NCBI GenBank assembly: GCA_963720545.1
Contig: OY970399.1
Coordinates: 2,848,001 to 2,912,000, forward strand
Direction of reading: 5' to 3'
Source: an uncultured Acidobacteriota bacterium
GTDB lineage: Bacteria > Acidobacteriota > Vicinamibacteria > Fen-336
Length of the DNA stretch: 64,000 nucleotides
This document shows, one piece after another, positions 17,543 to 48,715 of this stretch. Each line of letters starts with the position of its first letter. Within the stretch, counting starts at the first letter, position 1. The notes beneath the pieces were generated by a model. That model did no database searches. It saw nothing but the letters and a program-made list of their open reading frames with translations, and was not told where the DNA came from. A program made the translations under genes and the position numbers.

Positions 17543-19401
17543 ACATCAGGATCACGCGCACCCGCCTGGCGGTCGGAACGCTGCTCGTCACCGGGGTGAT
17601 GTTCGCCGGTGCGGTCGGCCTGGTGCGCACGCTGACCAACCAGGAATACCACGCTCCGGTGATCGCGGAGAAGACCGATTCCGCCGCAGCGCCGCGCGAG
17701 CAGGCGCTGAAGGATGCTTCCGAAGCGCGCCTCAAGTCGGAGCGGGAACGTCCCTACAAGGACGACGAGTACCGTGCCTTCCCGATGGTGGGCAGCCGCG
17801 TCGCGGTCTGGATCATCGCCCAGCTGCACCTGCTGTTCGCGGCATTCGTGCTGGCGGTGCCGCTGTTCGCGCTCATCATCGAGTTCATCGGCTTCCTCAA
17901 GAAAGACAAGCGCTTCGACCGGCTCGCCTACGAATTCACCAAGCTGCTGTCGGTTTCGTTCTCGCTCACCGCCACCTTCGGCGCCTTCCTGCTGTTCATG
18001 CTGGTGGTCCTGTACCCGAAGTTCATGGTGTACCTGACGCACGTGTTTTCACCGACCTTCGCACCCTACGTCGGCCTTTTCTTCTTCGAGGCGTTCTTCC
18101 TCTACACGTACTACTACGGCTGGGGAAAGTTCTCGCCAAAGGTGCACCTGTTCCTCGGCCTCTGCCTCAACCTGGTCGGCACCGGCATCATGCTGATCGC
18201 GAACGCGTGGCTCACGTTCATGACGACGCCCGCCGGCGTCTCCGAGAGCGGTGCCGTCATCAGCACCTGGGACGCCGTCCACAACTACACCTGGATGCCG
18301 ATCAACATCCACCGCATCATCGCGAACGTCGCGTTCGGCGGCTCGGTGGCGGCCGCATACGCTGCCTTCAAGTACCTGGGAGCCACCACCGACGAGGAGC
18401 GCGCCCAGTACGACTGGATGGGCTACATCGGTAACTTCATCGCCATCTGCGCGTTCCTGCCGCTGCCGTTCGCCGGCTACTGGCTGGCGTCGGAGATCTA
18501 CGCCTACTCGCAGACCCTTGGCCTCACGATGATGGGCGGCGCCTTCTCGTGGCTGTTCATCATCCAGGCGGTGCTCATCGGCAACCTGTTCCTCGGCGCC
18601 AACTATTACCTGTGGCTCGGCATGGGCCGGGTGGACGCCTCGCGCCGCTTCCAGGGCTACATCAAGTACCTGCTCATCGTCATCGCCATCTGCTTCGCCA
18701 TCTGGGGCACGCCGCGCTCGATCATCGCCACCGTCTCCGAGACGCGCGCGATGGGCGGCGCTTCGCACCCGCAGCTCGGCTACCTCGGCGTCATGTCGGC
18801 GAAGAACACCGCGGTCAACATCCTCATCCTCACCACCTACGTGAGCTTCCTGCTGTACCGCCGTTCCGGGCGCGTGCCGACAGTCTCGTGGGCGCGGCTC
18901 GGCAACATCGCGCAAGGCGCAATCGCGCTGCTGGCGGGCGGCATCGTCATCTTCCTCGGCATCTACGGCTACTTCGTCGAGGCGAAGGTGCGCATAGGAT
19001 TTTCCGTGCCCCAGGTGGGGTCGGTGCTGACCGCCATGATCGTGGTGACGATCATCGACGTGTTCATGTACCGAAACGCGCGCGACCTGGGTGAAATCCA
19101 CTGGGGGCGCATCCACCCGATCTCGCAGTACGTGCTCATCTTCCTCGCGGTCACGTTCACGTGGCTGATGGGGCTCATGGGCTACGTGCGCTCGGGCCTG
19201 CGCCAGCACTGGCACGTCTACGGCATCATGCGCGACACCTCGGTCGACGCATTTACGCCGACGCTCGGCTTCGCCACTCGCATCGTCTCGGTGACGGTGC
19301 TGCTCTTCTTCATGCTCATCGGCTTCGTGTTCTGGCTCGCGAGCCTCTCCGACCACGACCCCACCGCCGATTCGGGGCATGGCCACGGGAACAAGTCGTG
19401 A
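17539..19401 (+). CDS. Cytochrome bd-like oxidoreductase, CydA homologue without Q-loop
   Basis: ATG overlaps actE stop. CydA-like motifs 'AQLHLLFAAF', 'FFFEAFF', 'ANAWLTFMTTP', 'IHRIIAN', 'MGYVRSGLRQHWHVYGIMR'. No cydB follows. Confidence 0.85.
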   Translation: MNIRITRTRLAVGTLLVTGVMFAGAVGLVRTLTNQEYHAPVIAEKTDSAAAPREQALKDASEARLKSERERPYKDDEYRAFPMVGSRVAVWIIAQLHLLFAAFVLAVPLFALIIEFIGFLKKDKRFDRLAYEFTKLLSVSFSLTATFGAFLLFMLVVLYPKFMVYLTHVFSPTFAPYVGLFFFEAFFLYTYYYGWGKFSPKVHLFLGLCLNLVGTGIMLIANAWLTFMTTPAGVSESGAVISTWDAVHNYTWMPINIHRIIANVAFGGSVAAAYAAFKYLGATTDEERAQYDWMGYIGNFIAICAFLPLPFAGYWLASEIYAYSQTLGLTMMGGAFSWLFIIQAVLIGNLFLGANYYLWLGMGRVDASRRFQGYIKYLLIVIAICFAIWGTPRSIIATVSETRAMGGASHPQLGYLGVMSAKNTAVNILILTTYVSFLLYRRSGRVPTVSWARLGNIAQGAIALLAGGIVIFLGIYGYFVEAKVRIGFSVPQVGSVLTAMIVVTIIDVFMYRNARDLGEIHWGRIHPISQYVLIFLAVTFTWLMGLMGYVRSGLRQHWHVYGIMRDTSVDAFTPTLGFATRIVSVTVLLFFMLIGFVFWLASLSDHDPTADSGHGHGNKS

Positions 19402-19949
19402 GGGTGCCGGTGGTCGTCAAGATCGGCGTGCTGACCATCGCCACCACCAGCTTCTACATGTTCATCGGCCAGCTGGTGCCGCAGAAGGAAGTGCACCCGC
19501 CGAAGGAGACCGCCCTCAAGAAGGAGATGGGCGAGGCCGAGCTGGTGCAGGCGGGCCACCAGATCATGGAAGGCAAGGGGCTGTGCTTCACCTGCCACAC
19601 CATCGGCAAGTCGGGTGCCTTGCGCTTTCCCGACCTCGCCGGCATCGGCGCGCGCGCCGGGACGCGGGTGCCGGGCCTCAACGACGTCCAGTACCTGGCG
19701 CAGTCGATCTACGAGCCGAGCCATTTCATCGTGCCCGGCTTCAACCCCGGCATGCCGGTCATCAACAAGCCGCCCATCGGCCTCACCGACCAGGAAATCC
19801 TGGCCGTGATCGCCTGGCTGCAGAGCCAGGGCGGCAAGGTGAGCGTGACACTCAACTCGAAGGTGTGGCCGCTCGATGCTGCCGGCGCGGCGCCCGCTGC
19901 CGACGCGGCGGCCCCGGCGGCGTCGCCGGCAGCGGAGCCGAAGACCTAG
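19398..19949 (+). CDS. Membrane-anchored monoheme cytochrome c
   Basis: GTG overlaps upstream stop; N-terminal TM, CFTCH, 'YLAQSIYEPS..PGMP'. Confidence 0.88.
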   Translation: MRVPVVVKIGVLTIATTSFYMFIGQLVPQKEVHPPKETALKKEMGEAELVQAGHQIMEGKGLCFTCHTIGKSGALRFPDLAGIGARAGTRVPGLNDVQYLAQSIYEPSHFIVPGFNPGMPVINKPPIGLTDQEILAVIAWLQSQGGKVSVTLNSKVWPLDAAGAAPAADAAAPAASPAAEPKT

Positions 19950-19953
19950 CGCC

Positions 19954-20781
19954 ATGACCTTCCTGTTCTTCAACCTGCCGATCCTGCTCGCCGTGATCGC
20001 GGCGTGGCTGCTGCTGCGGTGGCGCAAGGCCGGCAGCTTCACCTGGACGCTCGCCATCTGGATCGGGATGTTCCTGATCTTCCGCCTCGGCTTCGCGGTG
20101 CCGATCCCGCTCTCGGTGATCCTCCTCTACATGGGCATCGTCTCGCTGGCGCTGACCGCGTACGTGACGTCCGACTCGGAGCGGCGCACGGCGTTTGCCG
20201 CGCCGATCCTGTCGCTGGTGCTCGATCCCGCAAAGAAGCTGTTGCTCGCCGGTGTGCTGGTGCTGCTGCCGGCGCTCGCCGTCGCCGGCGCCTGGCTCAG
20301 CACCCGCGAGAAGCTCGAGGCGCCGGGCTTCGGCCGCACCGTGCACCCGGCGCCGCCCGACACCATCACCGTGCACGACAAGAGCGTCGACCTCGTCAAG
20401 GGCCACAACCCGCTGCGCGAGCTTGAGACCACGAACCCGGAACAGTTCAAGCAGCACCTCGCCAACGGCCGCAAGACGTACTACCAGAACTGCGTCTTCT
20501 GCCACGGCGACGACATGGCCGGCGACGGCATGTTCATCCACGGCCTCAACCCGATCCCGACCAACTTCACCGACAAGGGCAACATCCCGCAACTGCAGGA
20601 GACGTTCCTCTTCTGGCGCATCTCCAAGGGCGGCCCGGGACTACCGGCCGAGGGCGGCCCGTGGGATTCGGCTATGCCCGCGTGGGAGAGGTTCCTGAGC
20701 GAAGAGCAGATCTGGGAAGTGATCCTGTTCGTCTACGACTACACCGGCTACCGGCCGCGAGCCTCGGAGGCGCACGAATGA
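19954..20781 (+). CDS. Multi-TM monoheme cytochrome c
   Basis: About four N-terminal TMs, CVFCH, 'FWRISKGGPGLP..WDSAMPAW'. Confidence 0.88.
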   Translation: MTFLFFNLPILLAVIAAWLLLRWRKAGSFTWTLAIWIGMFLIFRLGFAVPIPLSVILLYMGIVSLALTAYVTSDSERRTAFAAPILSLVLDPAKKLLLAGVLVLLPALAVAGAWLSTREKLEAPGFGRTVHPAPPDTITVHDKSVDLVKGHNPLRELETTNPEQFKQHLANGRKTYYQNCVFCHGDDMAGDGMFIHGLNPIPTNFTDKGNIPQLQETFLFWRISKGGPGLPAEGGPWDSAMPAWERFLSEEQIWEVILFVYDYTGYRPRASEAHE

Positions 20782-22421
20782 TCGGCCGCGGCACCTTCGT
20801 GCGCGTCTTGCTGGCGGCCGCCGTCGCGGGCAGCCCGGCGATCCTCGCGAACGACCTCGACACCGGCAAGAAGGTCTACGACAAGAACTGCGCGCAGTGC
20901 CACGGCGACGCGGGCGACGGCAACGGCGTGGCGGCAGCGCACCTGCGGCCACGGCCCCGCGACTTCACGAGCGGCAAGTTCAAGCTGCGCACCACGCCCT
21001 CGGGCGCGCTGCCGACGGACGACGACCTGAAGCGCGTCATCCGCAAGGGCATGCCGTACACCACGATGCCGGCGTGGCCGAATCTCAGCGACGCCGAGGT
21101 CAACGGCGTCGTGATGTACGTGAAGAAATTCCACGACGGTTTCGCCGACCCGACACAGGCGCCCAAGCCCATCGACCTGCCGGCGGCGCCCGCGTTCAGC
21201 AAGGAGTCGGCGCAGAAGGGCCGCCAGATCTACGTGGACAACGGCTGCGTGCGCTGCCACGGCGACTCCGGGCGCGGCGAAGGGCCGTCCGGCCCGACGC
21301 TCGCGGACGACGCCGGCCATCCGCTGCGCGCGGCCGACCTCAACTACCGCTGGACGTTCCGCGGCGGCCCGACGCGCGAGGACATCTTCCGCACCTTCAG
21401 CACCGGGGTGAACGGCACGCCCATGCCGTCCTTCTACGATTCGCTGAAACCCGAGGAGCGCTGGAACCTCACCGACTACATCTACTCGCTGGGCGATGCC
21501 GACCTGCCGAACTACGCGACGCTGCTGGTCGCAAAGGCGGCCAGCGAAGACCTCGACGTCGCCAAGGGGGCTTCGCTCTTCGATGCGGCGCCGATGGCTC
21601 GCTTCCCGCTCGTCGGCCAGATCATGGAGCCCGGCAGGGCGTTTTCGCCGTCCTCGACGGCGGTCGAGGTCAAGGCGGTCTACGACGGCGCGCGCATCGC
21701 CTTCCTGGTGCGTTGGCACGACATCCAGGCGGACACCACCGGCAAGAATTCGCCGATGCTGGAGGTGCCGCTCGAGGAAGAGTCGTCGTCGGCCGCGCCT
21801 GCCCCTGCAGCTGGCGGCGCTGAGGATCCCTTCGCCGCGGAAGCGGCCGCGCCGGCCCCGGCGGCCGCAGCGCCGGCCGATCCGTGGGGAGACGCCGGCG
21901 CCGAAGGCGCTGCTTCGGGCTCCGCCACGGAGTTCTCCGATGCAGTCGCGATGCAGATTCCGGTGGCGCCGCCCGACGGCCCAGCCAAGCCCTACTTCCT
22001 GTTCGGCGACGGCTCGCGCGCAGTGGACCTGTGGTTCCTGGACACCGCCCAGAAGCGGGTCCACCAGTACGTCGGCCGCGGCACCGGGGCCTTGACGCTC
22101 GCCGAAGGCAGCGAGGTGGACGGCAGCGCCACCTACGCGAACGGCGAGTGGTCGGCGATCTTCATCCGCGACCTGCGCTCGACCAACAGCATCTCGTTCG
22201 CGGAAGGCGGCTACGTGCCCATCTCGTTCTCGGTCTGGGACGGGCTCGACCGCGAGCGCGGCAGCCGCCGCGCCATCACGCAGTGGTTCTACGTGTACCT
22301 CGACCCGATGGAGAAGCCGTCGGCCATCGTGCCGATCGTCACCGCCGGTGCCGCAGTGCTGTTGCTCGAGCTTCTCGGCGTGTTCCTGATCCGCCGCGGC
22401 CGCGCTCGCGCGGCGGCTTGA
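20778..22421 (+). CDS. Diheme cytochrome c fused to an EB_dh (EbdC/NxrC-like heme-b) domain, C-terminal TM anchor
   Basis: Signal peptide, CAQCH and CVRCH, 'FSDAVAMQIP..KPYFLFGD..VDLWF', 'PISFSVWDG..RERGSRR'. Confidence 0.85.
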   Translation: MIGRGTFVRVLLAAAVAGSPAILANDLDTGKKVYDKNCAQCHGDAGDGNGVAAAHLRPRPRDFTSGKFKLRTTPSGALPTDDDLKRVIRKGMPYTTMPAWPNLSDAEVNGVVMYVKKFHDGFADPTQAPKPIDLPAAPAFSKESAQKGRQIYVDNGCVRCHGDSGRGEGPSGPTLADDAGHPLRAADLNYRWTFRGGPTREDIFRTFSTGVNGTPMPSFYDSLKPEERWNLTDYIYSLGDADLPNYATLLVAKAASEDLDVAKGASLFDAAPMARFPLVGQIMEPGRAFSPSSTAVEVKAVYDGARIAFLVRWHDIQADTTGKNSPMLEVPLEEESSSAAPAPAAGGAEDPFAAEAAAPAPAAAAPADPWGDAGAEGAASGSATEFSDAVAMQIPVAPPDGPAKPYFLFGDGSRAVDLWFLDTAQKRVHQYVGRGTGALTLAEGSEVDGSATYANGEWSAIFIRDLRSTNSISFAEGGYVPISFSVWDGLDRERGSRRAITQWFYVYLDPMEKPSAIVPIVTAGAAVLLLELLGVFLIRRGRARAAA

Positions 22422-26542: not shown

Positions 26543-26675
26543 ACGGCTCCTCCTTCTGTTCGTCGACGGAGGGGGTCCAATCGGAACGTTGGCGCGAAGA
26601 TACGCCCGGCGGCAGTTGCAAGGCTTCACGAATTCCTAAGGATTGAAGCATTCGGCTAGTCTCCGCCCAAGGACC

Positions 26676-30820: not shown

Positions 30821-30837
30821 GGTTTCTTTCTAAGCCT

Positions 30838-31428: not shown

Positions 31429-31432
31429 CGCC

Positions 31433-33208: not shown

Positions 33209-33270
33209 TGAATCCCCCTTCAGGAGCGGCGCCTCCGAACCATCGAAGACGCCGCGTTTAGGTTGCCCGT

Positions 33271-33987: not shown

Positions 33988-34071
33988 CGCGTCTTCTCTC
34001 CCTTGAGCCGGAATGGCCGGCTATTTGATTGATGATCGTACCGCTGCCAATCGCCTGCTGTCGCGCCCCGA

Positions 34072-37785: not shown

Positions 37786-38655
37786 GTGAAGATCCGCACC
37801 TATAACGAGGTGAGCGGCGGCGACTCGTCCGGCATCCTGGCGCAGGTGGTGGCGCAGCGCGACCGGGTGAGCGAGCGCCTGGCCTCGGTCCGCCACGTGG
37901 TCGCGGTGATGAGCGGCAAGGGCGGGGTGGGCAAGAGCCTGGCGACCGCGGGTCTCGCGCGGGTGCTCGCGCGCAAGCCCTGGCGCGTCGGCGTCCTCGA
38001 TGCGGACCTGCACGGCCCGACCACGGCACGCATGCTGGGCGCCGTGCCCGGCAGCCTTGCCGTCCGCGACGGCGCCGTCGCGCCGGCTGCGGGCGCCGAT
38101 GGCATCCGCGTCATGTCGAGCGAACTGCTGCTCGACGAAGCGGCGCCTCTGCGCTGGAAGGAGCCGGGCGCCGACGGGTTCGTCTGGCGCGGCACCCTCG
38201 AGACCGGCATGCTGCGCGAGTTCCTCGCCGACGTCTCCTGGGGCGAACTCGACGTGCTGCTCCTCGACCTGCCGCCTGGCACCGAACGCCTCGAGGCGCT
38301 TGCGGCGCTGGTGCCGGCGCTGCGCGGCGTCGTGGTCGTCACCATCCCGACGGACGAGTCGTACCAGTCGGTGCGGCGCTCGGTGGCGGTTGCGCAGAAG
38401 GCAGGCATTCCCATCCTCGGGCTCATCGAGAACATGTCCACCTACCGCTGCGCGCATTGCCACGCCGCCGGGGCGCTCTTCGCCGGCGATGCCGCCGAGC
38501 GGCTGGCACGAGAATCGGGCGCGCCCATCCTCGACCGCGTCCCGTTCGACCCGCGCCTGCAACTCACCGCAGCCGGCTTGCCCGACAGCGTTCACGACGC
38601 GTTCGCGCCGGCCGCGGCGGCGCTCGCGGCGCGGCTGGAAGCGGCGGCCCGTTGA
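37786..38655 (+). CDS. Mrp/ApbC/NBP35 family Fe-S carrier ATPase
   Basis: 'VMSGKGGVGKS', 'LDADLHGP', 'DLPPGT', 'ENMSTYRCAHC'. Confidence 0.92.
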   Translation: MKIRTYNEVSGGDSSGILAQVVAQRDRVSERLASVRHVVAVMSGKGGVGKSLATAGLARVLARKPWRVGVLDADLHGPTTARMLGAVPGSLAVRDGAVAPAAGADGIRVMSSELLLDEAAPLRWKEPGADGFVWRGTLETGMLREFLADVSWGELDVLLLDLPPGTERLEALAALVPALRGVVVVTIPTDESYQSVRRSVAVAQKAGIPILGLIENMSTYRCAHCHAAGALFAGDAAERLARESGAPILDRVPFDPRLQLTAAGLPDSVHDAFAPAAAALAARLEAAAR

Positions 38656-39092
38656 AGTTCCTGTGCATCGCCTGCGATTCGGTGATGGCGTTCGCCGAAC
38701 GGCAGCTGCCGGGCGACGGCACGCTGGCCGCGATGTTCACGTGCCCGAAGTGCGACCGCTCTGTCGCGATGCTGACGAACCCGATGGAGACGCAGCTCGT
38801 CTCGTCGCTCGGCATCCAGATCGGCGGCAAGTCGGTTCCTGACCAGCCGTTCGAGCTGACGCGCACCGCGGTGGACGGCGGCCGCAGCGACGCCTTCGCC
38901 GACGCGCCGGTGCCCTCGGGCAGCGTCGTCTGGGAAGCCGAAGCCAAAGCGCGCCTCGAGCGCGTGCCGACTTTCGTTCGCGGCATGGTGCTGCGCATCT
39001 ACAACGACTACGCCAAGGAACGCGGTATTCGCTCGATGACCACCGAAGTCATGGACACGGCGCGCCGCGAGCTCGGCCTCGAGGGCATGTAG
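38652..39092 (+). CDS. Zn-ribbon-like (2x CxxC) + PCP_red domain protein
   Basis: TTG overlaps upstream stop; 'CIACD', 'CPKCD'; C-terminal 'WEAEAKARLERVPTFVRGMV..YAKERG..TTEVM'. Confidence 0.8.
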   Translation: MKFLCIACDSVMAFAERQLPGDGTLAAMFTCPKCDRSVAMLTNPMETQLVSSLGIQIGGKSVPDQPFELTRTAVDGGRSDAFADAPVPSGSVVWEAEAKARLERVPTFVRGMVLRIYNDYAKERGIRSMTTEVMDTARRELGLEGM

Positions 39093-39094
39093 CC

Positions 39095-39340
39095 GTGGCC
39101 TTCGACGAGCGCGACGCGGCTGGCCTGCGGCTGCGCATCGACCGCGACCTGTGCGTCGGCTTCGGCGACTGCATCACCGAAGCGCCCGACGGCTTCGTGC
39201 TCGACGACGATGGCATCGCCGTGTACACGAAGCCGGAGACGTGCACTCGTGAGCAACTGCTCGCGGCCTGCGAAGCCTGCCCCGTAGACGCGATCACGGC
39301 TTTCGGCGCAGACGGCGAGGTGTTGGCGCCGAAGCGCTGA
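39095..39340 (+). CDS. Small single-cluster ferredoxin
   Basis: 'IDRDLCVGFGDCITEAP', 'ACPVDAI'. Confidence 0.88.
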   Translation: MAFDERDAAGLRLRIDRDLCVGFGDCITEAPDGFVLDDDGIAVYTKPETCTREQLLAACEACPVDAITAFGADGEVLAPKR

Positions 39341-39344
39341 ACTG

Positions 39345-39422
39345 GACGTTGAGTCCGCACAGCTCAAGAGTGACTCGTTCCGTTCCGGAACGAGTTGGAG
39401 TTGAGTCGTCGACGCGCAGGAA
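39345..39422. repeat. Direct repeat copy 1 (78 bp), palindromic core
   Basis: GACGTTGAGTCCGCACAGCTCAAGAGTGACTCGTTCC(GTTCC)GGAACGAGTTGGAGTTGAGTCGTCGACGCGCAGGAA; matches 41736-41808. Confidence 0.92.
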
Positions 39423-39425
39423 TGC

Positions 39426-40808
39426 ATGGATCAAGAGAGCAGAGTCGTCAACGACGTCCATTCGCGGATGAATGAGACGCAGGTTCGCGAGATCGTGCAG
39501 CCGCAGTCCGCCGCCGATGTGCGCACCAGTGTTCGAAGAGCGGCGACGCAGGGTATCGCGGTGGCGACCAGCGGTGCGCGCCATGCGATGGGTGGGCAGC
39601 AGTTCCGCACGAGCGGGCTGCTGCTCGACATGCGCCTGATGAACCGGGTCGTGCATCTCGACGGTGGCGCCGGCCTTCTGCGAATCGAGGCCGGCGCTTC
39701 TTGGCCCGACATTGTCCAAGCCACGGCGCGTTCTCCATGGAGCATCCGCCAAAAACAAACGGGCGCCGATGCGCTGACGCTCGGTGGCTCCATCGCCTGC
39801 AATGCGCACGGCCGTGGGCTGGTGATGGGGCCGCTAGTTGATGACATCGAATGCTTGACGCTGTGCGATGCCCGTGGCGAACTCATCACTTGTTCGCGGC
39901 AGGCGAATGCGGAGCTCTTCTCCCTTGTGGTAGGCGGCTACGGCCTGTTTGGCGTTGTCATCGACGCGACTCTGCGACTCACACGTCGAATGGCATTGCG
40001 CCGACTGGTGGACATCATCGACATCGATGATGCCGTTGCCGCGGTCGCCCGCCGCGTCGCGGAGGGTTGTCTCTACGGCGACTTTCAGTACGCCATCGAC
40101 GCGACGGACGACTCTTTCCTGCGGCGCGGCGTGATGGCCTGCTACAGACCGGTTGCCGACGATATGCCGGCGACGGACGGGAGTTCGGATCTCTCGCGGG
40201 AGGATTGGCTGAAGTTGCTAACCCTCGCGCATACCGACAAGCGCCGGGCATTCCAGGCTTATTCCGAGCACTACCTGGCCACCCACGGCCAAATTTACGC
40301 CTCTGACACGATGCAGCTTGGCACCTACATTCCCTCGTACGCGGAGTTCCTTGCCGAAGCTCTCGGCCACACGGTGCCGGAGAGCCTGATGATCACCGAG
40401 CTGTACGTCCCGCCCCAACGAATCGTCGCATTCATGGCCGCGGCTCGCGCCGTGTTGCGCTCGACCGGCGTCGAGGACATCTACGGCACGATCCGTTCGA
40501 TCCGAAAGGACAACACCACATTCCTCCCCTGGGCTCGTGCGGATTTCGCTTGTGTGATCTTCAACCTGCGCACGCCCGCCACCGTCGCCGGCCGCGCACG
40601 AACGGCCGACGCGGCGCGCGGTCTCATCGACGCGGCCGCAGCTCTCGGTGGTTCCTTCTATCTCACCTACCATCGGTGGGCGACGCGCGACCAGGTCCTC
40701 CTCTGTCACCCCCGGTTACCAGCGATGCTTGCTTTGAAGCGGCAGTACGACCCGACACTCGTCTTCCAGAGCGACTGGTACGCACATCATGTCGCCTTGC
40801 TGCAATGA
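39426..40808 (+). CDS. FAD-binding oxidoreductase (FAD_binding_4 / VAO-type)
   Basis: 'GARHAMGGQ', 'TLGGSIACNAHGR', 'ELFSLVVGGYGLFGVV', 'LKRQYDP..FQSDW'. Confidence 0.9.
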   Translation: MDQESRVVNDVHSRMNETQVREIVQPQSAADVRTSVRRAATQGIAVATSGARHAMGGQQFRTSGLLLDMRLMNRVVHLDGGAGLLRIEAGASWPDIVQATARSPWSIRQKQTGADALTLGGSIACNAHGRGLVMGPLVDDIECLTLCDARGELITCSRQANAELFSLVVGGYGLFGVVIDATLRLTRRMALRRLVDIIDIDDAVAAVARRVAEGCLYGDFQYAIDATDDSFLRRGVMACYRPVADDMPATDGSSDLSREDWLKLLTLAHTDKRRAFQAYSEHYLATHGQIYASDTMQLGTYIPSYAEFLAEALGHTVPESLMITELYVPPQRIVAFMAAARAVLRSTGVEDIYGTIRSIRKDNTTFLPWARADFACVIFNLRTPATVAGRARTADAARGLIDAAAALGGSFYLTYHRWATRDQVLLCHPRLPAMLALKRQYDPTLVFQSDWYAHHVALLQ

Positions 40809-41701
40809 AGACGGCGAGCCCCAGCGCCACCGCGCGCCTTATCGCCGCGGCCACGGTGTTGTCGGCTTCCGATCCGTCGACCGCCAGCCTCATTCCGCCG
40901 GCCGCCGCTTCGTGGTGCGCCAGCTTCCTGTCCTTTGTGATCGCCGATCGCCTGCTGCTGGCTTCGGTACGCACGGCACCGGGTCGGGCCGGTTGGCGCC
41001 TCGTTGAGCGCATGACGCTGCCCGGCATGATTCGGCATTACGCGCTGCGCAAGGCGTACATCGAGACAGTATGGCGTCAGGCCAAGGGGGACGGATACCG
41101 CCAGCTCCTGGTGCTTGGAGCCGGCCTCGACACGCTGGGTTTGCGGGTTGCGGCTGCGGATTCGATGGTCCGCGTCGTAGAGCTCGACCATCCCGCCACG
41201 CAGTCGATCAAGAGACGGGCTCTGCTTGAACGCGCCCCTCACAACTTTCATATGGTCGAAGGTCGCTTGGACCGCGCAGGCTGGTCACCGGCGATACGCG
41301 AGGCGGGCGCGCTGGATCCGGCACTCGCGACCCTCGTGTTGCTCGAGGGTGTCTCCATGTACCTCAATGAAGCGGCTGTGATAGCACTGCTGGGCGAGGT
41401 TGGACGGTTGCCTGCGCCGCGGCTGCGGCTGGTCATGACACTGTTCGACCGCAGCGAAAAGCGCCGCATCGGCTTCCGGCCAACGAGCCGTCTCGTCACC
41501 GGTTGGTTGCGCGTGGTCGGCGAGCCATTCTTCTGGGGCTGCGAGGACGACCGTGTCGGGTCGTTCCTTCGATCCTGTGGATTCGGACTGATTCGTCTCG
41601 CCAAACCCCGCGACTTCACACCGGAGGCTCGCGCAACCGCGACGAGTGCCGTTCTCGAAGGTGAGGGCGTTGCGGTGGCAGATCATGTGACAAGCGGCTG
41701 A
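40805..41701 (+). CDS. Class I SAM-dependent methyltransferase (LCM-like)
   Basis: ATG overlaps upstream stop; 'QLLVLGAGLDT', 'ELDHPATQ', 'LLEGVSMYL'. Confidence 0.88.
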   Translation: MKTASPSATARLIAAATVLSASDPSTASLIPPAAASWCASFLSFVIADRLLLASVRTAPGRAGWRLVERMTLPGMIRHYALRKAYIETVWRQAKGDGYRQLLVLGAGLDTLGLRVAAADSMVRVVELDHPATQSIKRRALLERAPHNFHMVEGRLDRAGWSPAIREAGALDPALATLVLLEGVSMYLNEAAVIALLGEVGRLPAPRLRLVMTLFDRSEKRRIGFRPTSRLVTGWLRVVGEPFFWGCEDDRVGSFLRSCGFGLIRLAKPRDFTPEARATATSAVLEGEGVAVADHVTSG

Positions 41702-41735
41702 GGTTCGCCAACGTGTACCGAGTGTGCCAAGCGAC

Positions 41736-41808
41736 GACGTTGAGTCCGCACAGCTCAAGAGTGACTCGTTCCGGAACGGGTTGGAGTCGAGTCGTCGACG
41801 CGCAAGAA
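41736..41808. repeat. Direct repeat copy 2 (73 bp)
   Basis: Same as 39345-39422 except for the missing GTTCC duplication and three substitutions. Confidence 0.92.
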
Positions 41809-41872
41809 CCGAACGATTTGTCCTGGGCTCAGCGGCGTCCAGCGGCGGTCCAGCCGTAGACAGCTACCGCTG

Positions 41873-43879
41873 TCACCGGCTTCCGCTCGCCTTGGCGATG
41901 AGGGCGAGCGACGCCGGCTGCGTCGCGTAAGCGGTCTTGTAGGTCGCGGCCTTGGCGGCGGGCAGGCGATAGCCCGCGGCGATCAGCTCTTCGAGGCCGT
42001 CGTGGCCGCTCCACAGTCCCATCTCGAAGGCGGTCAGGCCCATCGCGTTCGCGGCCTTCACGTCGCCGCCCGAGCGGATCAGCAGGCGCATCACCGTGCG
42101 GTCGCAGCCCGCGATCGCGGCGTCCATCAGCGGGGTGTTGCCGTTCTTGTCCTTGTGCGCGGCGCTTGCGCCCTTCTCGACCAGCGCCTGCACGATCGCG
42201 AGCGTCGCGGCTTTCGTCGGCCGCTCGGTCGGCGCGCATGCCTGGTTGACGAGCGCCATCTTGAGCGGCGGATCGTCGCCGGTGCCCTCGAAGCCGCGGT
42301 TCACCGGGATGCCGGCGTCCACGAACGCCTTCACCAGTTCCGCGTCGCCCTGGCCGATGGCGCGGTAGAAGTTCCAGTCGTCGAAGGCGACGCCGCGTTC
42401 ACGCAGCAGCGCGAGCGCGGCACGTTCGCCTGCGGGCGCCGCCTGGGAGGCGGCTGCTGCCGTCGCCGCCACCGGCGCGCCGCCTGGCGTGGCGCGCCGG
42501 CCGCTCTTCACGCGCTCCGCGGCTTCCTGCGCCGCCGCACGGACACGTGGCTCGGGATCACGCGCCAGCGCTTCGATCGCCGGCAGGGCCGACCTGGCCT
42601 CCGCCTCGCGGTTGCGCAGGTGCGAGAGCGCGCGCAGCCGCACCTCGAGCGCGTTGCCGGAGCCTGCGATCGTCGCGAGGTCGCCGGCCGACCCCTCTTC
42701 ACCAAGCGCCAGGCCGTTCAGCGCATCGAGGGCCTCGAGCCGCGTGTCCACTTCGGCATCGCCGGCGATGGCCTTCAGGAGCGGCGCGTGGGCGCGTTGC
42801 GCGACCGCCTGCTTCGCCGCCACGGGCACCGCCGCCGTGCGGTCGCCCATCTTGACGAGTGCGCGCGCGGCGCTGCGCCTCACGTACTTGTCGGGATCGC
42901 CGCCGAGCGCGTCAACGACGGCGCCCACTTGTTCGGCGGCCAGGCCGCCCGCTGCGCCGAGCGCATCGAGCGCCGCCGATCGCACGTCGTCGTCGGGACT
43001 CTTCACAAACCGCGCCGCGGGGGATGCCCACGCCGCGACGTCCTTCTCGGTGTGCTGTCCGGCGAGTTCCTTGAGCGCCGCTTCCTGCACGTCCACGTTG
43101 GCGGAGCCGAGCAGCTCGACCAGCGTCGCGGTCCAGCCGGTCGGCTTCGGCTCGAAGCTGCCAAGCGCCTTGATGATGAGGGGCGTGCCCGGCTGGCCGG
43201 AACGGGCCGCCTTCGTGAGCGGCGCGACCAGGCCGCGGTCGCGGGTGGCAGCCAGCTCCTGCAGCGCGTTCGTTGCGAGCTCGCTGTTGGTGCGCTGCGC
43301 GTCGTAGTTCGGATCGCTCACCGGCACCGCCGTCGACCATTCGGCCGTGTACGCGAGCACCGGGCCGAGGAGCCGCGTCGGTTCGTCGATGCCGATGAGG
43401 CCGCTCGCCGCGAGAAAGCGCGTGTCAGTGGCGCTTGCCGGCCCATCCAGGACCCGCCGCCGCGTGGCGGCCAGATCTTTTGCCGGCACACCCAGCGCCT
43501 GGAGAGCGCCGGCGGCGCGCACGGCGACGTCCCCGCTGACGTCATCGAGCGCCTTCGTCAACGCGGCGCGCGCCGGCTCCGCGGCCTTGTGCGAGCGCCA
43601 CAGGGACCGCGCCGCTGCCACCCGCACGCGCGGCGCCGGATCGGCGAGCGCCGCGGTCAGCGCGCTGATGGCCGCGGGGTACTCCGAGCCGCCGAGATAC
43701 TCCGCGGCATCCTCGCGCTTTTGCGGATCCTTTTCGGCCTGGAGCGCCTTGATCTTTTCGTCCACCCACTTGCGAGCCTGCCGGTCGCTCTTCTCGTCGA
43801 CGCCTGGCGGTGCTGCGGCATGCGCCGGCAAGGCGGTTGCGAGGAACGACAAGGCGAGGCAGCGAAGCAGCAGGCGCAT
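41873..43879 (-). CDS. Secreted HEAT-repeat protein with C-terminal ankyrin repeats
   Basis: Signal peptide 'MRLLLRCLALSFLATALPAHA'; repeated 'L.D....VR..AA.AL'; 'DKNGNTPLMDAA', 'NAMGLTA'. Confidence 0.8.
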   Translation of the reverse strand: MRLLLRCLALSFLATALPAHAAAPPGVDEKSDRQARKWVDEKIKALQAEKDPQKREDAAEYLGGSEYPAAISALTAALADPAPRVRVAAARSLWRSHKAAEPARAALTKALDDVSGDVAVRAAGALQALGVPAKDLAATRRRVLDGPASATDTRFLAASGLIGIDEPTRLLGPVLAYTAEWSTAVPVSDPNYDAQRTNSELATNALQELAATRDRGLVAPLTKAARSGQPGTPLIIKALGSFEPKPTGWTATLVELLGSANVDVQEAALKELAGQHTEKDVAAWASPAARFVKSPDDDVRSAALDALGAAGGLAAEQVGAVVDALGGDPDKYVRRSAARALVKMGDRTAAVPVAAKQAVAQRAHAPLLKAIAGDAEVDTRLEALDALNGLALGEEGSAGDLATIAGSGNALEVRLRALSHLRNREAEARSALPAIEALARDPEPRVRAAAQEAAERVKSGRRATPGGAPVAATAAAASQAAPAGERAALALLRERGVAFDDWNFYRAIGQGDAELVKAFVDAGIPVNRGFEGTGDDPPLKMALVNQACAPTERPTKAATLAIVQALVEKGASAAHKDKNGNTPLMDAAIAGCDRTVMRLLIRSGGDVKAANAMGLTAFEMGLWSGHDGLEELIAAGYRLPAAKAATYKTAYATQPASLALIAKASGSR

Positions 43880-43943
43880 GTTGAAAGCCTCCGGAGTGCC
43901 GATGCTAAGCGAGCGGCCCTTTGCCGCGGCGATAGCGCGCAAA

Positions 43944-43972
43944 TTGCCTCGCGTGTAAGCGTTTGCGATACT
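43944..43972 (+). promoter_or_regulatory. Putative sigma70 promoter for the 43999-48715 operon
   Basis: TTGCCT-N17-GATACT about 27 bp upstream of the ATG at 43999. Confidence 0.4.
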
Positions 43973-43998
43973 GCCACTTCGTTCGATCCGGGGGTGAC

Positions 43999-44715
43999 AT
44001 GACTGACGTTGAAACGGTGCCTGAGGCGCCACAGGTAAAGGTCGAAAGCGGCGTCGCCAGGGTCCTGGTGGACGGCAAGGAACGCGAGTTCCAGTTGAAG
44101 CCGCTGCCCGAGGAGTTCACCAAGTGGCAGCTCGAGTACAAGCACCGGATCTACGATTCGATCCTCAAGGACGAGTACGTGCGCTTCAACGCCGGCCACC
44201 TGCCGGTGGTCGGCTCGTGGGACGAGGAGTCTCTGTTCCCGAACCTCGCCAACAAGGGCGTCGGCTTCACGCCGAAGGACGAGTACATCGAGAAGTACCT
44301 GAAGCTCGTCGAGGACGCGGTCGCCGAGATCGAGAAGCTGCCGACGCACGCGGTGGACGAGACCCGCAAGATGCGCATCGCGACGGCGCGCGAGTTCTAC
44401 GCGCATCCCGAGCACATCGACTGGAGCCGCCTGGGGCTGCTCGAGATCTTCGAGGGCGGCACCTACCGCAACTTCGTCAAGAACCCGTTCGCCTCGGTGC
44501 TCTGGACCGGCGACTCGCCGGTGTTCGTGAGCTACCAGGTCGACTGCATCGTCGAGGTGATCACGCCGGAGCACCCGCGCTACCGCTTCTCCTGGGCGAT
44601 GCGGCGGCTCTTCGAGTTCGAGCCGTTCCACATCGTGCAGACCATGTTCCCGTACGCGTACACGCTGTGGGTCTACGACTACAAGGACAAGACCCCGCGC
44701 CGCCGCTTCAAGTGA
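43999..44715 (+). CDS. Hypothetical protein, probable PNPOx-like FMN/heme split-barrel fold
   Basis: Strong GC3 codon bias; 'LLEIFEGGTYRNFVKNPFASVLW..SYQVDCIVEVI' resembles the split-barrel core. Confidence 0.55.
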   Translation: MTDVETVPEAPQVKVESGVARVLVDGKEREFQLKPLPEEFTKWQLEYKHRIYDSILKDEYVRFNAGHLPVVGSWDEESLFPNLANKGVGFTPKDEYIEKYLKLVEDAVAEIEKLPTHAVDETRKMRIATAREFYAHPEHIDWSRLGLLEIFEGGTYRNFVKNPFASVLWTGDSPVFVSYQVDCIVEVITPEHPRYRFSWAMRRLFEFEPFHIVQTMFPYAYTLWVYDYKDKTPRRRFK

Positions 44716-44731
44716 GCGCCGCCGCACATCG

Positions 44732-45352
44732 ATGATCCAGCACAAGCGTGTCGACCGCGGCCAGCTCGCCGCGTTCCTGAAGGACGTCGCGGGCCGGCTC
44801 ACCCGGCCGGTGCATCTTTATCTCATCGGCGAGAGCGCCCTGGTGCTGGCGGGCGCTCGCGAGGCGACCGAGGAGAAGTTCGTCTACACGGCGAGCCCCT
44901 CGGACCGCGCGGCGCTCGACAAGGCCGTGGCCACGAGTGCGTCCGGCATCGGCATCGAGGTGCAGGCCGAGTCTCCGGCCGAGGTCGTGCCGACGCCAGA
45001 CGGCGCCGAGTCGCGCGCGCGGCCGATTGCCGAATGGCAGGCAGGGCCGCTCAAGGTCAGCGTCTACGATCCCTACGGCGCCGCCATCCGCCTGGTGGCG
45101 CGCGGCGACGAGCCCGATTATCACGCGGTCGTCGGCTACATGCGCCTCGGCTGGATGACGATGGAAGAGCTCGACCGCATTGTCGAGACGCTGATCGCGC
45201 GCTTCACCAAGGAAACGATCGCGCAGGATCCGGAGGAGTTCCGCCGCAAGCTGAAGGGCCTGCGGCAGATGTGGCGCGCCGACGTCTCGCGCCGCGCCGG
45301 CCAGCCCGTTTGGCAAGAGACCCCCCGCGGAGATACGCTCACGAACACGTAG
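44732..45352 (+). CDS. Hypothetical protein, DUF6036/nucleotidyltransferase-like
   Basis: 'LYLIGESALVLAG.R.AT', 'DPY..AI..V.RG..D' pattern; the usual acidic DxD is not evident. Confidence 0.5.
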   Translation: MIQHKRVDRGQLAAFLKDVAGRLTRPVHLYLIGESALVLAGAREATEEKFVYTASPSDRAALDKAVATSASGIGIEVQAESPAEVVPTPDGAESRARPIAEWQAGPLKVSVYDPYGAAIRLVARGDEPDYHAVVGYMRLGWMTMEELDRIVETLIARFTKETIAQDPEEFRRKLKGLRQMWRADVSRRAGQPVWQETPRGDTLTNT

Positions 45353-45398
45353 CTGCACCTGCCGCAGTCGGCCGTTTCTCGTCCACGAGGTCCGCGGA

Positions 45399-47390
45399 AT
45401 GTACAAGGAAGTGTTCGTCCCGGTCGACAACTCGCAGCACTCGGACTGGGCGGTGGAGCGCGCGATCGAGATGTGCCAGGCGACCGGCGGGCGCATCACC
45501 GCGAACCACGTGTATGCGGCGCGCCTGCACGACGTGCGCTTCCGCCAGCTCGAAACCGGGCTGCCGGCGCAGTTCCAGACGCCCGAAGAGATCAAGCGCC
45601 AGCGCAAGATCCACGACAAGCTGATCGAGAAGGGCCTGCAGCTGATCGCCGACAGCTTCCTCGACCAGGTCGGCAACCGCGCCGAGGCCGCCGGCGTGCC
45701 GCTGACGCGCCAGCTGCTCGAGGGCATCAACTACGAAGAGATCGTGCGCGAGCTGAACCGCGGTGAGGGCCGCCTGCCGGGCCTCATCGGCTTCGACCCC
45801 AATCGCGCCAAGGGCTACGACGGCGCCGACAAGATCCGCGGCGACGTGCAGCTCGGAGCCGACGGACGCATCGTCGCCGAGGACGAGGGCGAGGCGGCGA
45901 AGCTCGCCGGCAACTCCGGCCGCCAGTACGACCTCATGGTGATCGGCGCGCACGGCCTCGGCCGCCAGCAGTATTCGCAGGTGGGCGGCGTCGTCTCGCG
46001 TGCGCTGCGCTCGATCGAGAAGGACACGCTCATCGTCAAGGACGGCACGCCGCTGCGCGGCGGCAAGATCATGGTGTGCGTCGACGGCTCGTCCTACTCG
46101 TACCGCGGCATGAAGGCGGCGCTCGAGCTGGCGCAGCAGTTCGGCGCCGAGCTCTACGTCTGCAGCGCCTTCGACGTCGAGTATCACCACATCGTGTTCC
46201 ATAACATCAAGGACGTGCTCTCGGCCCAGGCCTCGAAGGTGTTCAAGTTCGAGGAGCAGGAAGAGCTGCACAACAACATCATCGACAAGGGCCTGCTGAA
46301 GCTGTGCCAGGCGAACATCAAGCGCGCCGAGGCGATGGCCAAGGAGTATCCCGGCGTGCCGATGAAGTCGCAGATCCTCATCGGCAAGCCGTTCCAGGTG
46401 ATCCTGCAGTGGGCCGAGGAGATCAAGCCCTCGATGGTGATCGCGGCGCGGCACGGCGCCCATCGCGTCGACGGCACCGACCTCGGCTCGCAGGCCGAGA
46501 ACCTGATTCGCCTCTCGCCCGCGAACCTGATGCTGATCGGCACCACCGGCATCCGCCCCGAGGACATTCCGTGGATCGAGGAGGACGGCCAGGCCGGGCT
46601 GCCGTGGGCGCCCGACGCCGAGGTGCGCATCCTGCGCGTGCCGCCGTTCGCGCAGGGCATCGCGCGGCGCGCGGTCGAGGAGTACATCCTCGAGAACAAC
46701 GGCGGCGAGCTGAACCCGATCGTGACCAACAAGTGGCTCGACCAGGCGATCGCCAAGCTGCTGCCGACGCACATGCAGCTCATCATGGGCATCGGCAGCG
46801 CCGAGGAGATCGCACTCGCCGAGACCAAGGCCGAGGAGCAGCTGCGCGCCACCAAGGTGGTGGGCTACGACGACGACCCGGAGCCGGAATCTTCGGACGT
46901 CGAGACGAAGTGCCCGATCACCGGCCAGGTCGGCAAGCGCCCGCGCATGGCCACCGACCCGATCGTCTGGACCAACGAGGCCTGGGACCGGCTGCGCGGC
47001 GTGCCGCTGATCGCGCGGCCGCTGGCGCGCAACACCGTCGAGCGCTTCTCGCGCAACCACGGCATCTGGCGCGTCACCACCCGCGTGATGGACGAGAACA
47101 AGGCGGCCATGATCGAGGCCGACGAGTTCGACGCCGAGACCATGATGACGATGTTCACCGAGCTGCGCGCCCGCCAGATCCGCGCCGAGGCGGAAGGCGG
47201 CAGCGCCATCTCCGAGGAGATGCGTCAGTTCATCGAGGAGGCGAAGGCGAACGGCGTCACCCGCTGCCCGATCCGCGACATCGAAGTGCAGATGGACAAG
47301 TGCCCGGTGGACATGAAGACGGTCTCGCCGGCGGACGCGAAGAAGGCGGTCGAGCAGTACCTGGAGACCGTGGGCGCGAAGAAGGAGTAG
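45399..47390 (+). CDS. Tandem universal stress protein domains + two PCP_red-like domains + Cys-Pro motifs
   Basis: USP1 'VFVPVDNSQHS..DLMVIGAHG', USP2 'IMVCVDGSSYS..LGSQAENLIR'; 'WAPDAEVRILRVPPFAQGIARRAVEEY', 'WTNEAWDRLRGVPLIARPLARNTVERF'. Confidence 0.85.
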   Translation: MYKEVFVPVDNSQHSDWAVERAIEMCQATGGRITANHVYAARLHDVRFRQLETGLPAQFQTPEEIKRQRKIHDKLIEKGLQLIADSFLDQVGNRAEAAGVPLTRQLLEGINYEEIVRELNRGEGRLPGLIGFDPNRAKGYDGADKIRGDVQLGADGRIVAEDEGEAAKLAGNSGRQYDLMVIGAHGLGRQQYSQVGGVVSRALRSIEKDTLIVKDGTPLRGGKIMVCVDGSSYSYRGMKAALELAQQFGAELYVCSAFDVEYHHIVFHNIKDVLSAQASKVFKFEEQEELHNNIIDKGLLKLCQANIKRAEAMAKEYPGVPMKSQILIGKPFQVILQWAEEIKPSMVIAARHGAHRVDGTDLGSQAENLIRLSPANLMLIGTTGIRPEDIPWIEEDGQAGLPWAPDAEVRILRVPPFAQGIARRAVEEYILENNGGELNPIVTNKWLDQAIAKLLPTHMQLIMGIGSAEEIALAETKAEEQLRATKVVGYDDDPEPESSDVETKCPITGQVGKRPRMATDPIVWTNEAWDRLRGVPLIARPLARNTVERFSRNHGIWRVTTRVMDENKAAMIEADEFDAETMMTMFTELRARQIRAEAEGGSAISEEMRQFIEEAKANGVTRCPIRDIEVQMDKCPVDMKTVSPADAKKAVEQYLETVGAKKE

Positions 47391-48715
47391 TGGCCGCGAC
47401 CGCCGTCAGTTCCTTCGTTGCGGGCGAGCGCGAACCGGCTTCGAGCGAGTTCCTGCCGCACGTCGTCGCCTGGAACCTGACGAAGAAGTGCAACCTCCAG
47501 TGCACGCACTGCTACATCTCGGCGGGGCCGTGGGAGGACGCGAGCGACGAGCTGACGCCAGCGGAGTGCCTGCGGGTGGTGGACCAGCTGGTCGAGGTGA
47601 ACCCGTCGCCGATGCTGATCCTGAGCGGCGGCGAGCCGCTGCTGCGGCCCGACCTGCCGGCGCTCGCGGCGCACGCGGTGCGGCGCGGCTGCACGGTGGT
47701 GGTCGGGACCAATGGCACGCTGCTCACGGCGGCCAAGGTGGGGATGCTGAAGGACGCCGGAGTCTCGGGTGTCGCGGTCAGCGTGGATTCGCTCGAGCCC
47801 GGCGCCCACGACGCCTTCCGCGGCGGCTCGCATGCGCTGCAGCGCACCATGGCGGCGCTCGAACATCTGAAGGCGCAGCAGCTCGACTTCGTCATCCAGA
47901 CGACCGCGAGCCCGGCCAACCAGGACCAGATCCCGCAGATCGTGCGCTGGGCCGCCGAACAGGGTGCCGTCTGCTTCAACCTTTACTTCCTGGTGCCCAC
48001 CGGCCGCGGCGCCGACCTCGTCGACCTTGCGCCCGCACGCATCGAGTCGTTGCTTTCCGACCTCGCCGCGGCGGAGCAGGAGCAGCGCGGCGCGATGATG
48101 GTGCGCGCCAAGTGCGCGCCGCACTTCATCCGCCACGTCCACGGCACCGATCCCGACTCGCCGGTGCTCAGCTATCGCACGCGCTGTCCCTGCGGCATCG
48201 ACTACTGCCGCATCACCCCCGACGGCAAGCTGACGCCGTGCCCGTACATGCCAAGTGTCGCCGGCGACCTGCGCCGGCAGACCTTCGGCGAGATCTGGCG
48301 CGAGTCGCAGCTCCTCGCCTCGCTGCGCGAACGCTCCCTGGGCGGCCGCTGCGGCCGCTGCGAGTACCGCCTCATCTGCGGCGGCTGCCGCGCGCGGGCG
48401 CTGGCAGCCACCGGCGACGTGCTGGCCGAAGACCCGTCGTGCACCTACGAGCCGCAGCCCGACCGAGCGCCGATCCCGCGGCGCGCCATGACGTACGGCG
48501 GCGCGCACACGGCCACCCTCACGTGGCACCCGGCGGCGCAGGAGCGCATGAACAAGATCCCGTCGTTCGTGCGCGGCGTGGTGATGAAGCGCGTCGAAGA
48601 CTTCGCCCGCGAAAAAGGCGCCGCGACCGTGACCATCGACCTGCTGAAGGACATCCGCTCCGCCATGCCGGTCGACTTCTCGAAGAAGCGCCCGTTCTTC
48701 CTCAAGGACGAATGA
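47390..48715 (+). CDS. Radical SAM/SPASM enzyme (AhbC/AhbD/NirJ-like) with C-terminal PCP_red domain
   Basis: 'WNLTKKCNLQCTHCY', 'LSGGEPLLR', SPASM 'CPCG..C.ITPDG.LTPCPY..CGRCEY..CGGCRARA..DPSC'; tail 'WHPAAQERMNKIPSFVRGVV..VEDFAREKG'. Confidence 0.9.
   Translation: MAATAVSSFVAGEREPASSEFLPHVVAWNLTKKCNLQCTHCYISAGPWEDASDELTPAECLRVVDQLVEVNPSPMLILSGGEPLLRPDLPALAAHAVRRGCTVVVGTNGTLLTAAKVGMLKDAGVSGVAVSVDSLEPGAHDAFRGGSHALQRTMAALEHLKAQQLDFVIQTTASPANQDQIPQIVRWAAEQGAVCFNLYFLVPTGRGADLVDLAPARIESLLSDLAAAEQEQRGAMMVRAKCAPHFIRHVHGTDPDSPVLSYRTRCPCGIDYCRITPDGKLTPCPYMPSVAGDLRRQTFGEIWRESQLLASLRERSLGGRCGRCEYRLICGGCRARALAATGDVLAEDPSCTYEPQPDRAPIPRRAMTYGGAHTATLTWHPAAQERMNKIPSFVRGVVMKRVEDFAREKGAATVTIDLLKDIRSAMPVDFSKKRPFFLKDE

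Follow-up and report, generated by a model that had tools for sequence, protein, structure and literature searches.

A 64,000-nucleotide stretch from an uncultured Acidobacteriota bacterium (Vicinamibacteria, Fen-336; GenBank assembly GCA_963720545.1, contig OY970399.1, positions 2,848,001 to 2,912,000 of the forward strand), called the window below, was analysed for a group of genes built around the PCP_red domain. The domain (PF08369, gathering cut-off 32.5 bits) is carried here by a Zn-ribbon protein, a tandem universal stress protein (USP) and a radical S-adenosylmethionine (SAM) enzyme with a SPASM domain, which are accompanied by an Mrp-type P-loop ATPase and a ferredoxin. We refer to this gene set as the module, and its position and that of its likely client, a bd-like respiratory complex, are shown in Table 1.

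Table 1 Features of the PCP_red module and its surroundings in the window
Feature	Position	Strand	Remarks
bd-like (OR-N/TO_1-type) membrane protein, 620 aa, likely client	17539..19401	+	PF01654 on N-terminal half
bd-like partners: two monoheme cytochromes c and a diheme cytochrome c with EB_dh heme b domain	19398..22421	+	
Small DUF2442 gene between Mrp and divergent actC	37392-37730		
Mrp/NUBPL-like P-loop ATPase paralogue, 289 aa	37786..38655	+	PF10609 205.7 bits; Walker A GKGGVGKS; CxxC kept
Zn-ribbon/rubredoxin-like (CxxC...CxxC) protein, PCP_red at C-terminus	38652..39092	+	start overlaps Mrp stop
PCP_red copy 1 (Zn-ribbon protein)	38931..39065	+	47.1 bits
Single-cluster ferredoxin, 81 aa	39095..39340	+	PF13370 41.9 bits
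FAD-linked oxidase and LCM-type methyltransferase, intervening, non-module	39426..41701	+	third-position GC content (GC3) 0.76 and 0.74 vs 0.87-0.96
HEAT/ankyrin repeat protein, intervening, non-module	41873..43873	-	
Split-barrel protein (FMN/F420/heme-binding fold), optional member	44002..44715	+	predicted fold
206-aa protein, no family	44732..45352	+	no significant Pfam or NCBIfam match
Tandem USP protein, 663 aa: two USP domains, two PCP_red, three [KR]CP[VI] motifs	45399..47390	+	
PCP_red copy 2 (USP protein; divergent, insert-bearing)	46605..46760	+	28.6 bits, E 7.7e-6
PCP_red copy 3 (USP protein)	46968..47102	+	40.6 bits
Radical SAM/SPASM enzyme, 441 aa, PCP_red at C-terminus	47390..48715	+	start overlaps USP stop by 1 base
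PCP_red copy 4 (radical SAM)	48524..48655	+	55.2 bits

PCP_red copies and the layout of the module

Examined by Pfam, the four PCP_red copies in three proteins that the initial annotation had proposed were confirmed. The Zn-ribbon protein scored 44.8 bits, the USP protein 61.3 bits over two stretches and the radical SAM enzyme 51.7 bits, and the motif W-x-x-[EDA]-A-x-x-R-[LIM]-x-x-[VI]P-x-[FI]-x-[RQ] was matched letter for letter in all four copies. Scored singly, three copies lay above the cut-off, while the first copy of the USP protein stayed under it. The calls for the Mrp-type ATPase, ferredoxin, Usp, Radical_SAM and SPASM domains held as well. A six-frame search of the entire 4.09-Mb genome found exactly four PCP_red places, all in the window (38931, 46605, 46968 and 48524), and the genome therefore has no BchB, the protochlorophyllide reductase (DPOR) subunit whose C-terminus carries this domain. 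The nitrogenase-like catalytic body that stands N-terminal to the domain in DPOR subunit B was likewise not found in the module proteins, which matched only the last 70 positions of TIGR01278 (31-44 bits against a cut-off of 490). A link to photosynthesis was rejected.

By sequence search the domain also matches BchB chains, 2KRU and the stand-alone 2L09, and it is the same 45-residue domain as in BchB/ChlB. In the module, however, it sits on three unrelated proteins without BchB/BchN, and relatives reach six copies per chain. Among 251 genomes of the own phylum, PCP_red occurred in the 18 carriers of the module and in three others, one of which had two matches in BchB-sized frames. Methylomirabilota encode a further protein of 256-278 aa that consists of three PCP_red copies and helices only (L274:1048-1884, L275:1111-1881).

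The initial annotation had also offered PCP_red as a tetrapyrrole-binding module, and this part was not supported, no ligand residue being conserved across the four copies. They have W, A, R and P in common and share no His or Cys. The substrate residues of BchB given in a review (PMC13474568; here and below, literature is cited from text passages of the papers), namely Arg48, Asp290, His394 and Leu426, fall outside the PCP_red segment (474-528 of 2YNM chain D). Because of both observations, the sequences make docking likelier than pigment binding as the role of the domain.

The module genes of the window form two sub-operons, Mrp/Zn-ribbon/ferredoxin at 37786-39340 and split barrel/206-aa gene/USP/radical SAM at 44002-48715. 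They had been read as one co-oriented unit divergent from the actC-cox operon; the divergent actC stood, and the single unit did not, since the two parts are split by unrelated genes including the minus-strand HEAT/ankyrin gene. The FAD oxidase, methyltransferase and HEAT/ankyrin genes were absent from every related locus examined and were rejected as members for lack of any match there. The 206-aa gene had no counterpart in the 80 close loci described below, and its frame may be a degenerate DUF6036-type nucleotidyltransferase.

Occurrence of the module with the bd-like complex

The bd-like protein of the window has a CydA-like N-terminal half, no CxxCH, conserved H97, H203, H258, H410 and H559, and an operon with cytochrome c donors, which corresponds to the definition of OR-N. 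A simple hydropathy scan gave 11 hydrophobic segments, against the 14 membrane helices that mark OR-N2. The make-up of 17539-22421 is the same as that of the TO_1/bd-like_3/OR-N complex of Nitrospirota, Nitrospina and anammox bacteria, which is described as a bd-like subunit accompanied by two cytochromes c and by a heme b protein of the periplasm (PMC6606698, PMC3578206, 10.1101/2021.11.15.468770). The text passages of these descriptions name no helper genes, radical SAM enzyme, stress protein or special heme.

The genes of the USP and of the bd-like protein were found together in three phyla. In the own phylum both occurred in the same 18 of the 251 genomes, and three more genomes had weak CydA-level matches only; genome G023, counted among the 251, carries neither gene. 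In Gemmatimonadota (121 genomes) 31 had both, one the USP only, one the bd-like gene only and 88 neither. In Methylomirabilota (101 genomes) the corresponding numbers were 59, 5, 5 and 32, and all five genomes with the bd-like gene only still encode PCP_red proteins. The proposal of a dedicated module tied to the bd-like enzyme was thus borne out in 18/18 own-phylum carriers, 31/32 in Gemmatimonadota and 59/64 in Methylomirabilota, and we conclude that the module is very probably tied to this complex.

The gene order of related loci was then compared. The close loci, the best 80 of 472 GTDB stretches with a USP relative, were mostly from Gemmatimonadota, with one each from Rokubacteria, Armatimonadota and Vicinamibacteria, the last being the closest named USP locus. 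Their order was Mrp, Zn-ribbon, ferredoxin, USP, radical SAM, bd-like, two cytochromes c, a diheme cytochrome c with EB_dh, a carboxypeptidase-regulatory-like gene, cox2 and cox1. Mrp was present in 70 of the 80, the Zn-ribbon protein in 71, ferredoxin in 73, radical SAM in 77, the bd-like gene in 70 and cox1 in 41; actA, actC and the split barrel were each found in none. All 68 close loci with enough downstream sequence had the bd-like gene. A second USP lineage, about 33% identical, was found in 17 of 250 other own-phylum genomes, with the order actA, actB, actE, bd-like, cytochromes, USP, frequently followed by Mrp, Zn-ribbon and radical SAM. Of these distant loci, 16 had the bd-like gene, 11 radical SAM, 9 Mrp, 8 Zn-ribbon and none ferredoxin.

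In 37 of the 80 close loci the gene of a NifU-like scaffold protein precedes the operon by a few kb (L011:3246-3863). In 15 of the 17 distant Acidobacteriota loci a GNAT-like protein stands between USP and Mrp (L121:2722-3594); it has no counterpart in the window.

In a third, Nitrospira-like lineage (80 metagenome loci), the USP stands beside the radical SAM gene in 54. The order and lengths fit NITMOv2_0499 to 0496 of Nitrospira moscoviensis, a match by order and length, not by sequence. There, transcript levels of the 2106-bp modular USP and the radical SAM gene reach 9.3 and 3.3 times the median, and that of bd-like_3 reaches 27 times (PMC6606698), and in N. marina a protein annotated with PCP_red lies two genes from bd-like_2 (PMC8115632). 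The Nitrospira-like pair is flanked by a second, 540-aa radical SAM protein (48/80; L144:3692-5311) and by a membrane protein of DUF4149 size (59/80; L206:5274-5786), whose counterparts in N. moscoviensis are NITMOv2_0499 and 0496.

The helpers and the client of the window differ in type. The helpers are of Gemmatimonadota type, with a median identity of 77% against 33.5% to Acidobacteriota for the USP and 62% against 43% for the radical SAM enzyme, and the radical SAM tree agrees; the bd-like protein, in contrast, is closer to Acidobacteriota (70% against 55.5%). As a Gemmatimonadota-type module sits with an Acidobacteriota-type bd-like protein, these sequences suggest that the pairing of helpers and client has outlasted an exchange of the helpers.

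The initial annotation had also considered alternative complex III (ACIII) and the atypical aa3-type oxidase as clients. ActD was found in 178 of the 251 own-phylum genomes against 18 with the module, so ACIII does not account for the distribution of the module, and the link was not upheld. Service to ACIII or to the adjacent aa3-type oxidase, or else housekeeping heme synthesis, would fit the divergence of the window module from actC-cox, the cox2/cox1 genes that follow in the same string in Gemmatimonadota (41/80 loci), and one Gemmatimonadota genome in which hemE and a ChdC-family gene precede the USP by about 13 kb (L210:10193-12251, G251). But besides the ActD counts, actA and actC are missing from all 80 close loci, and the genome has a complete HemE-HemN-HemY-HemH route. 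This explanation is largely refuted, and we regard it as very improbable.

The act and cox genes of the window are arranged in two groups. actA-actB-actE run directly into the bd-like gene and its cytochromes (13314-22421, +), an actABE-bd-like order that recurs in the distant Acidobacteriota loci, and actC-actD-actF lie 12-15 kb away with a second aa3-type oxidase (29294-37248, -). Frames were shifted in actC, actD, actB and the cox genes (35277-37248, 30838-33838, 13514-17072), probably by assembly errors; the module genes are intact. The usual Cox1 motif is GHPEVY, and the second Cox1 (31433-33838, -) has FLAHPEVY and reached 581 bits against the CtaD cut-off of 671. A weak match to Peptidase_C70 (papain-like, 29 bits) was found at 25937-26629 (-).

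The radical SAM enzyme and the heme routes of its carriers

The best NCBIfam models for the radical SAM enzyme were NirJ2 (TIGR04055, 287 bits), AhbD (TIGR04545, 286), TIGR04053 (257), NirJ (189) and AhbC (181), all far below their cut-offs; NirJ2, AhbD, NirJ and AhbC are all enzymes of tetrapyrroles. On TIGR04545 the window enzyme reached 285.8 bits against a cut-off of 500, three distant members reached 296-317 and AhbD-like proteins of the same phylum 420-496. For AhbC and NirJ the values were 180.5 against 650 (TIGR04546) and 188.7 against 515 (TIGR04051), and their helpers differ from those of the module.

In a quick tree, the radical SAM proteins with PCP_red formed one clade (34/34 rows) apart from 30 other rows, with an SH-aLRT support of 99; the AhbD-like rows of this tree are the proteins scoring 420-496 bits, and it holds no biochemically proven AhbD. 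The clade held when AhbC-like rows were added, with a support of 98 and no resolved sister group, in a FastTree calculation that used 16 of the 34 module rows and left out the long-branch row L251.

The module enzyme and AhbD share the radical SAM and SPASM domains, a joint best model and 52 near-invariant columns (counted over 19 AhbD-like proteins), CAPH included. All SPASM cysteines are kept (conserved are C34/C38/C41 of the CxxxCxxC motif, C242, C266, C284, C321, C324, C330, C333 and C351). In contrast, three invariant AhbD positions are altered (E to N29, R to Y42, T to K241), and the cluster motif W/F-E-x-T...CxHCR of AhbD reads WNLT...CxHCY in the module enzyme, which also has the C-terminal PCP_red. 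The WN...CxHCY start is the form of the AhbC-like rows, and these lack CAPH. The module enzyme further differs from AhbD by its own clade, by a genome without AhbA/B or AhbC, and by being bound to one respiratory complex. The earlier description of an AhbD/NirJ-related enzyme that is not the housekeeping AhbD holds, given the separate clade, the 286 against 500 bits and the other heme b routes of the carriers. Housekeeping AhbD was rejected as its identity on account of that clade and the HemE-HemN-HemY-HemH route of the genome. None of the three refuting conditions set by the initial annotation was borne out. The module is a member of none of AhbD, AhbC, NirJ and DPOR.

SPASM enzymes often modify peptides. 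The enzyme could accordingly act on protein, installing a crosslink or another modification either in the bd-like subunit or in one of its partner cytochromes while the USP serves as scaffold. This would explain the tie to a single client; by sequence, the nearest solved structure is in fact PqqE (E 4.7e-18). We consider this improbable, as the peptide-maturase models PqqE (116 bits) and mycofactocin (134 bits) score far under the tetrapyrrole models, Pfam found no PqqD/RRE domain in the module proteins, and the tree places the enzyme among AhbD/AhbC relatives.

The heme routes of the carriers were examined for the substrate. The genome of the window has HemE, HemN, protoporphyrinogen oxidase and ferrochelatase above their cut-offs, so the module radical SAM enzyme is not needed for housekeeping. 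No match to AhbA/B, ChdC or HemF was found in this genome, which is 94.8% complete, nor was the siroheme decarboxylase family PF17805; the siroheme route was rejected for lack of AhbA/B. Among 22 carriers tested, 16 have housekeeping enzymes, with HemN in 4, a strong ChdC-family match in 7 and HemF in 5 (of 5 tested). The HemN, HemF and ChdC routes converge on heme b, and coproheme is no intermediate of the HemN or HemF routes (PMC7242693). As the carriers reach heme b by these three routes and the genome lacks a siroheme route, heme b is likeliest to be the substrate shared across carriers.

The same client could also be served with no new cofactor, through ordinary heme b supply or insertion, the radical SAM enzyme being a local coproheme decarboxylase (the AhbD reaction) or a HemW-like chaperone. 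The joint best model, CAPH and the complete SPASM cysteines fit such a role. So do the seven carriers with a strong ChdC-family match, which probably make coproheme, and a related archaeal CydAA' that functions with b hemes. Plain transfer would agree equally well with the His and CP motifs of the USP described below. However, the enzyme falls far short of the AhbD cut-off and of the AhbD-like proteins of its own phylum, it differs at N29, Y42 and K241, and the nine HemN or HemF carriers, which have no coproheme intermediate, still keep it. On balance we think plain heme b supply somewhat unlikely.

Companion proteins and proposed role

The predicted model of the USP protein (mean pLDDT, the predicted local distance difference test, 77.5) has two USP domains like those of Rv2623, TTHA0350 and UspE (Foldseek E 1e-15), with one helical insert in each. 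Unlike these tandem proteins, the module USP has long inserts with two invariant His each, PCP_red repeats, and CP or CxxC motifs. H44/H72 in the first insert and H263/H291 in the second, 28 residues apart in each pair, were invariant in 165/165 USPs from three lineages, as were H37 and H355. Of 120 close USPs, 119 have three motifs of the [KR]CP[VI] type and one has four. In other lineages the CP motif sits in the Zn-ribbon partner (8/8 in Acidobacteriota, 4/6 in Methylomirabilota), and Nitrospira-like USPs carry CxxC motifs instead; the CP motifs thus shift between partner proteins across lineages. CPV/F is described as a heme regulatory motif (PMC3136693).

A role in nucleotide or redox sensing, or in repair, by which the module would regulate the bd-like complex or protect it and the PCP_red repeats would act as signalling contacts, would agree with the tandem USP fold of Rv2623 and UspE, with distant USPs that hold up to six PCP_red copies and rubredoxin-like domains, and with CP motifs being typically regulatory. 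Yet the module has no DNA-binding or kinase domain, and an intact three-cluster radical SAM enzyme is always paired with the USP. Under low oxygen, none of the three PCP_red-annotated proteins of N. marina changed and ordinary USPs rose (PMC8115632). A sensing role is hardly likely in our view.

The Mrp homologue has the deviant Walker A GKGGVGKS in 68/68 copies and shares its P-loop family and this motif with the Mrp/ApbC/NBP35 carriers. CxxC provides the cluster ligands of Mrp/ApbC Fe-S carriers. By pattern it was found in the window Mrp, in 10/58 close and in 8/9 distant copies, and it was missing from 48/58 close copies (one unreadable by pattern); some close relatives have no cysteine at all. 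In further difference from these carriers, the window Mrp scored under the MrpORP and ApbC cut-offs, and a second Mrp is encoded elsewhere in the genome. Given the frequent lack of CxxC and the second Mrp, Fe-S loading, the task first assigned to the homologue, is not supported as its conserved role.

The ferredoxin and the split barrel, at first listed among the core parts, were rejected as core members, and both are optional. The ferredoxin was found in 73/80 close and 0/17 distant loci, that is, in the Gemmatimonadota-type operon only, and the barrel was found neither in the 80 close loci nor in 40 genomes searched, 30 of them carriers. The barrel protein has the predicted fold of the heme-binding split barrels HupZ/HutZ/ChuZ. 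A Foldseek search alone gave no match below E 0.001, and a wide structural search gave the HupZ match (Z 11.3, root-mean-square deviation 2.5, 120 aligned), followed by flavin mononucleotide (FMN)-binding barrels at Z 10.3; the top structural matches are tied across heme, FMN and F420 ligand classes. In other organisms the barrel occurs as a fusion with USP and PCP_red, namely in P0157 and P0167 (42% identity) and in 5/5 long homologues, seven proteins in all.

Taken together, we propose that the module, whose proteins would work in the cytoplasm, carries out a radical modification of heme b and that the USP delivers the product to the bd-like complex, a reading that we place just short of probable. 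Heme b would be the substrate, and once it is finished one of its side chains would be altered by the radical SAM enzyme. Electrons may pass to or from its clusters through the Zn-ribbon/rubredoxin-like domain, and through the ferredoxin where present. On the structural model, the USP may bind the heme through the paired His residues of both helical inserts; the CP motifs would serve as transient sites, and nucleotide binding would act as the switch. The USP would then hand the heme over to the bd-like complex. The P-loop ATPase would drive this hand-over step rather than carry Fe-S clusters, and PCP_red would be a shared docking tag that gathers the parts. In its full form, the proposal would have the radical SAM enzyme make a so far unknown heme from heme b, which the His-paired USP loads into the OR-N/TO_1 complex, with PCP_red as a general docking tag also used by chlorophyll reductase; this we put forward tentatively, as a possibility.

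Several observations weigh against this proposal. The chemistry of the bd family does not require a special heme, since the related archaeal CydAA' works with b hemes only (10.1101/2021.01.16.426971). Six of the 22 carriers tested fall outside the count of heme routes, five having weak ChdC-family matches only and one lying outside the HemF test, and the ferrochelatase call does not distinguish the protoporphyrin- from the coproporphyrin-specific type. The CP motif was found in 0/71 Nitrospira-like USPs. Within 10 kb, the 80 Nitrospira-like loci showed no bd-like, Mrp or ferredoxin gene, and the window module is separated from the bd-like genes by 15-29 kb. The pairing is broken in ten Methylomirabilota and two Gemmatimonadota genomes, in which assemblies are incomplete so that absence is unproven either way, and a partner cytochrome was found in only 2/5 of the USP-only Methylomirabilota genomes. 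Finally, the genome samples are incomplete, and because kin share genes and operon-linked genes travel together, the co-occurrence counts overstate independence.

No description of a PCP_red/USP/radical SAM module was found in the open-access literature. In passage searches, the term radical SAM did not occur in the texts on Nitrospirales, Nitrospinota, Nitrospina and Manganitrophaceae or in that of Murali, whose supplements and operon figure, outside this scope, may name some of the genes. The best analogy is the nir cluster, in which a single operon produces heme d1 as the special heme of one respiratory enzyme (PMC7242693), and by this analogy the module may work as a cofactor cluster of the nir type serving one respiratory enzyme.

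In Nitrospira and in manganese oxidisers, the bd-like complex ranks with the most strongly expressed respiratory complexes (PMC6606698, PMC3578206, PMC10839748, 10.1101/2021.11.15.468770). The helper set named here indicates which genes to co-express to obtain the bd-like enzyme, and N. moscoviensis is a cultured organism that transcribes the matching USP/radical SAM pair. The orphan PCP_red domain gains a testable role outside photosynthesis, and the module brings a radical SAM clade that is new and likely acts on a tetrapyrrole. If the proposal is true, a new heme would serve a complex that is a candidate for terminal oxidation or reverse electron transfer in Nitrospira, manganese oxidisers, Rokubacteria and numerous Gemmatimonadota and Acidobacteriota of soil.

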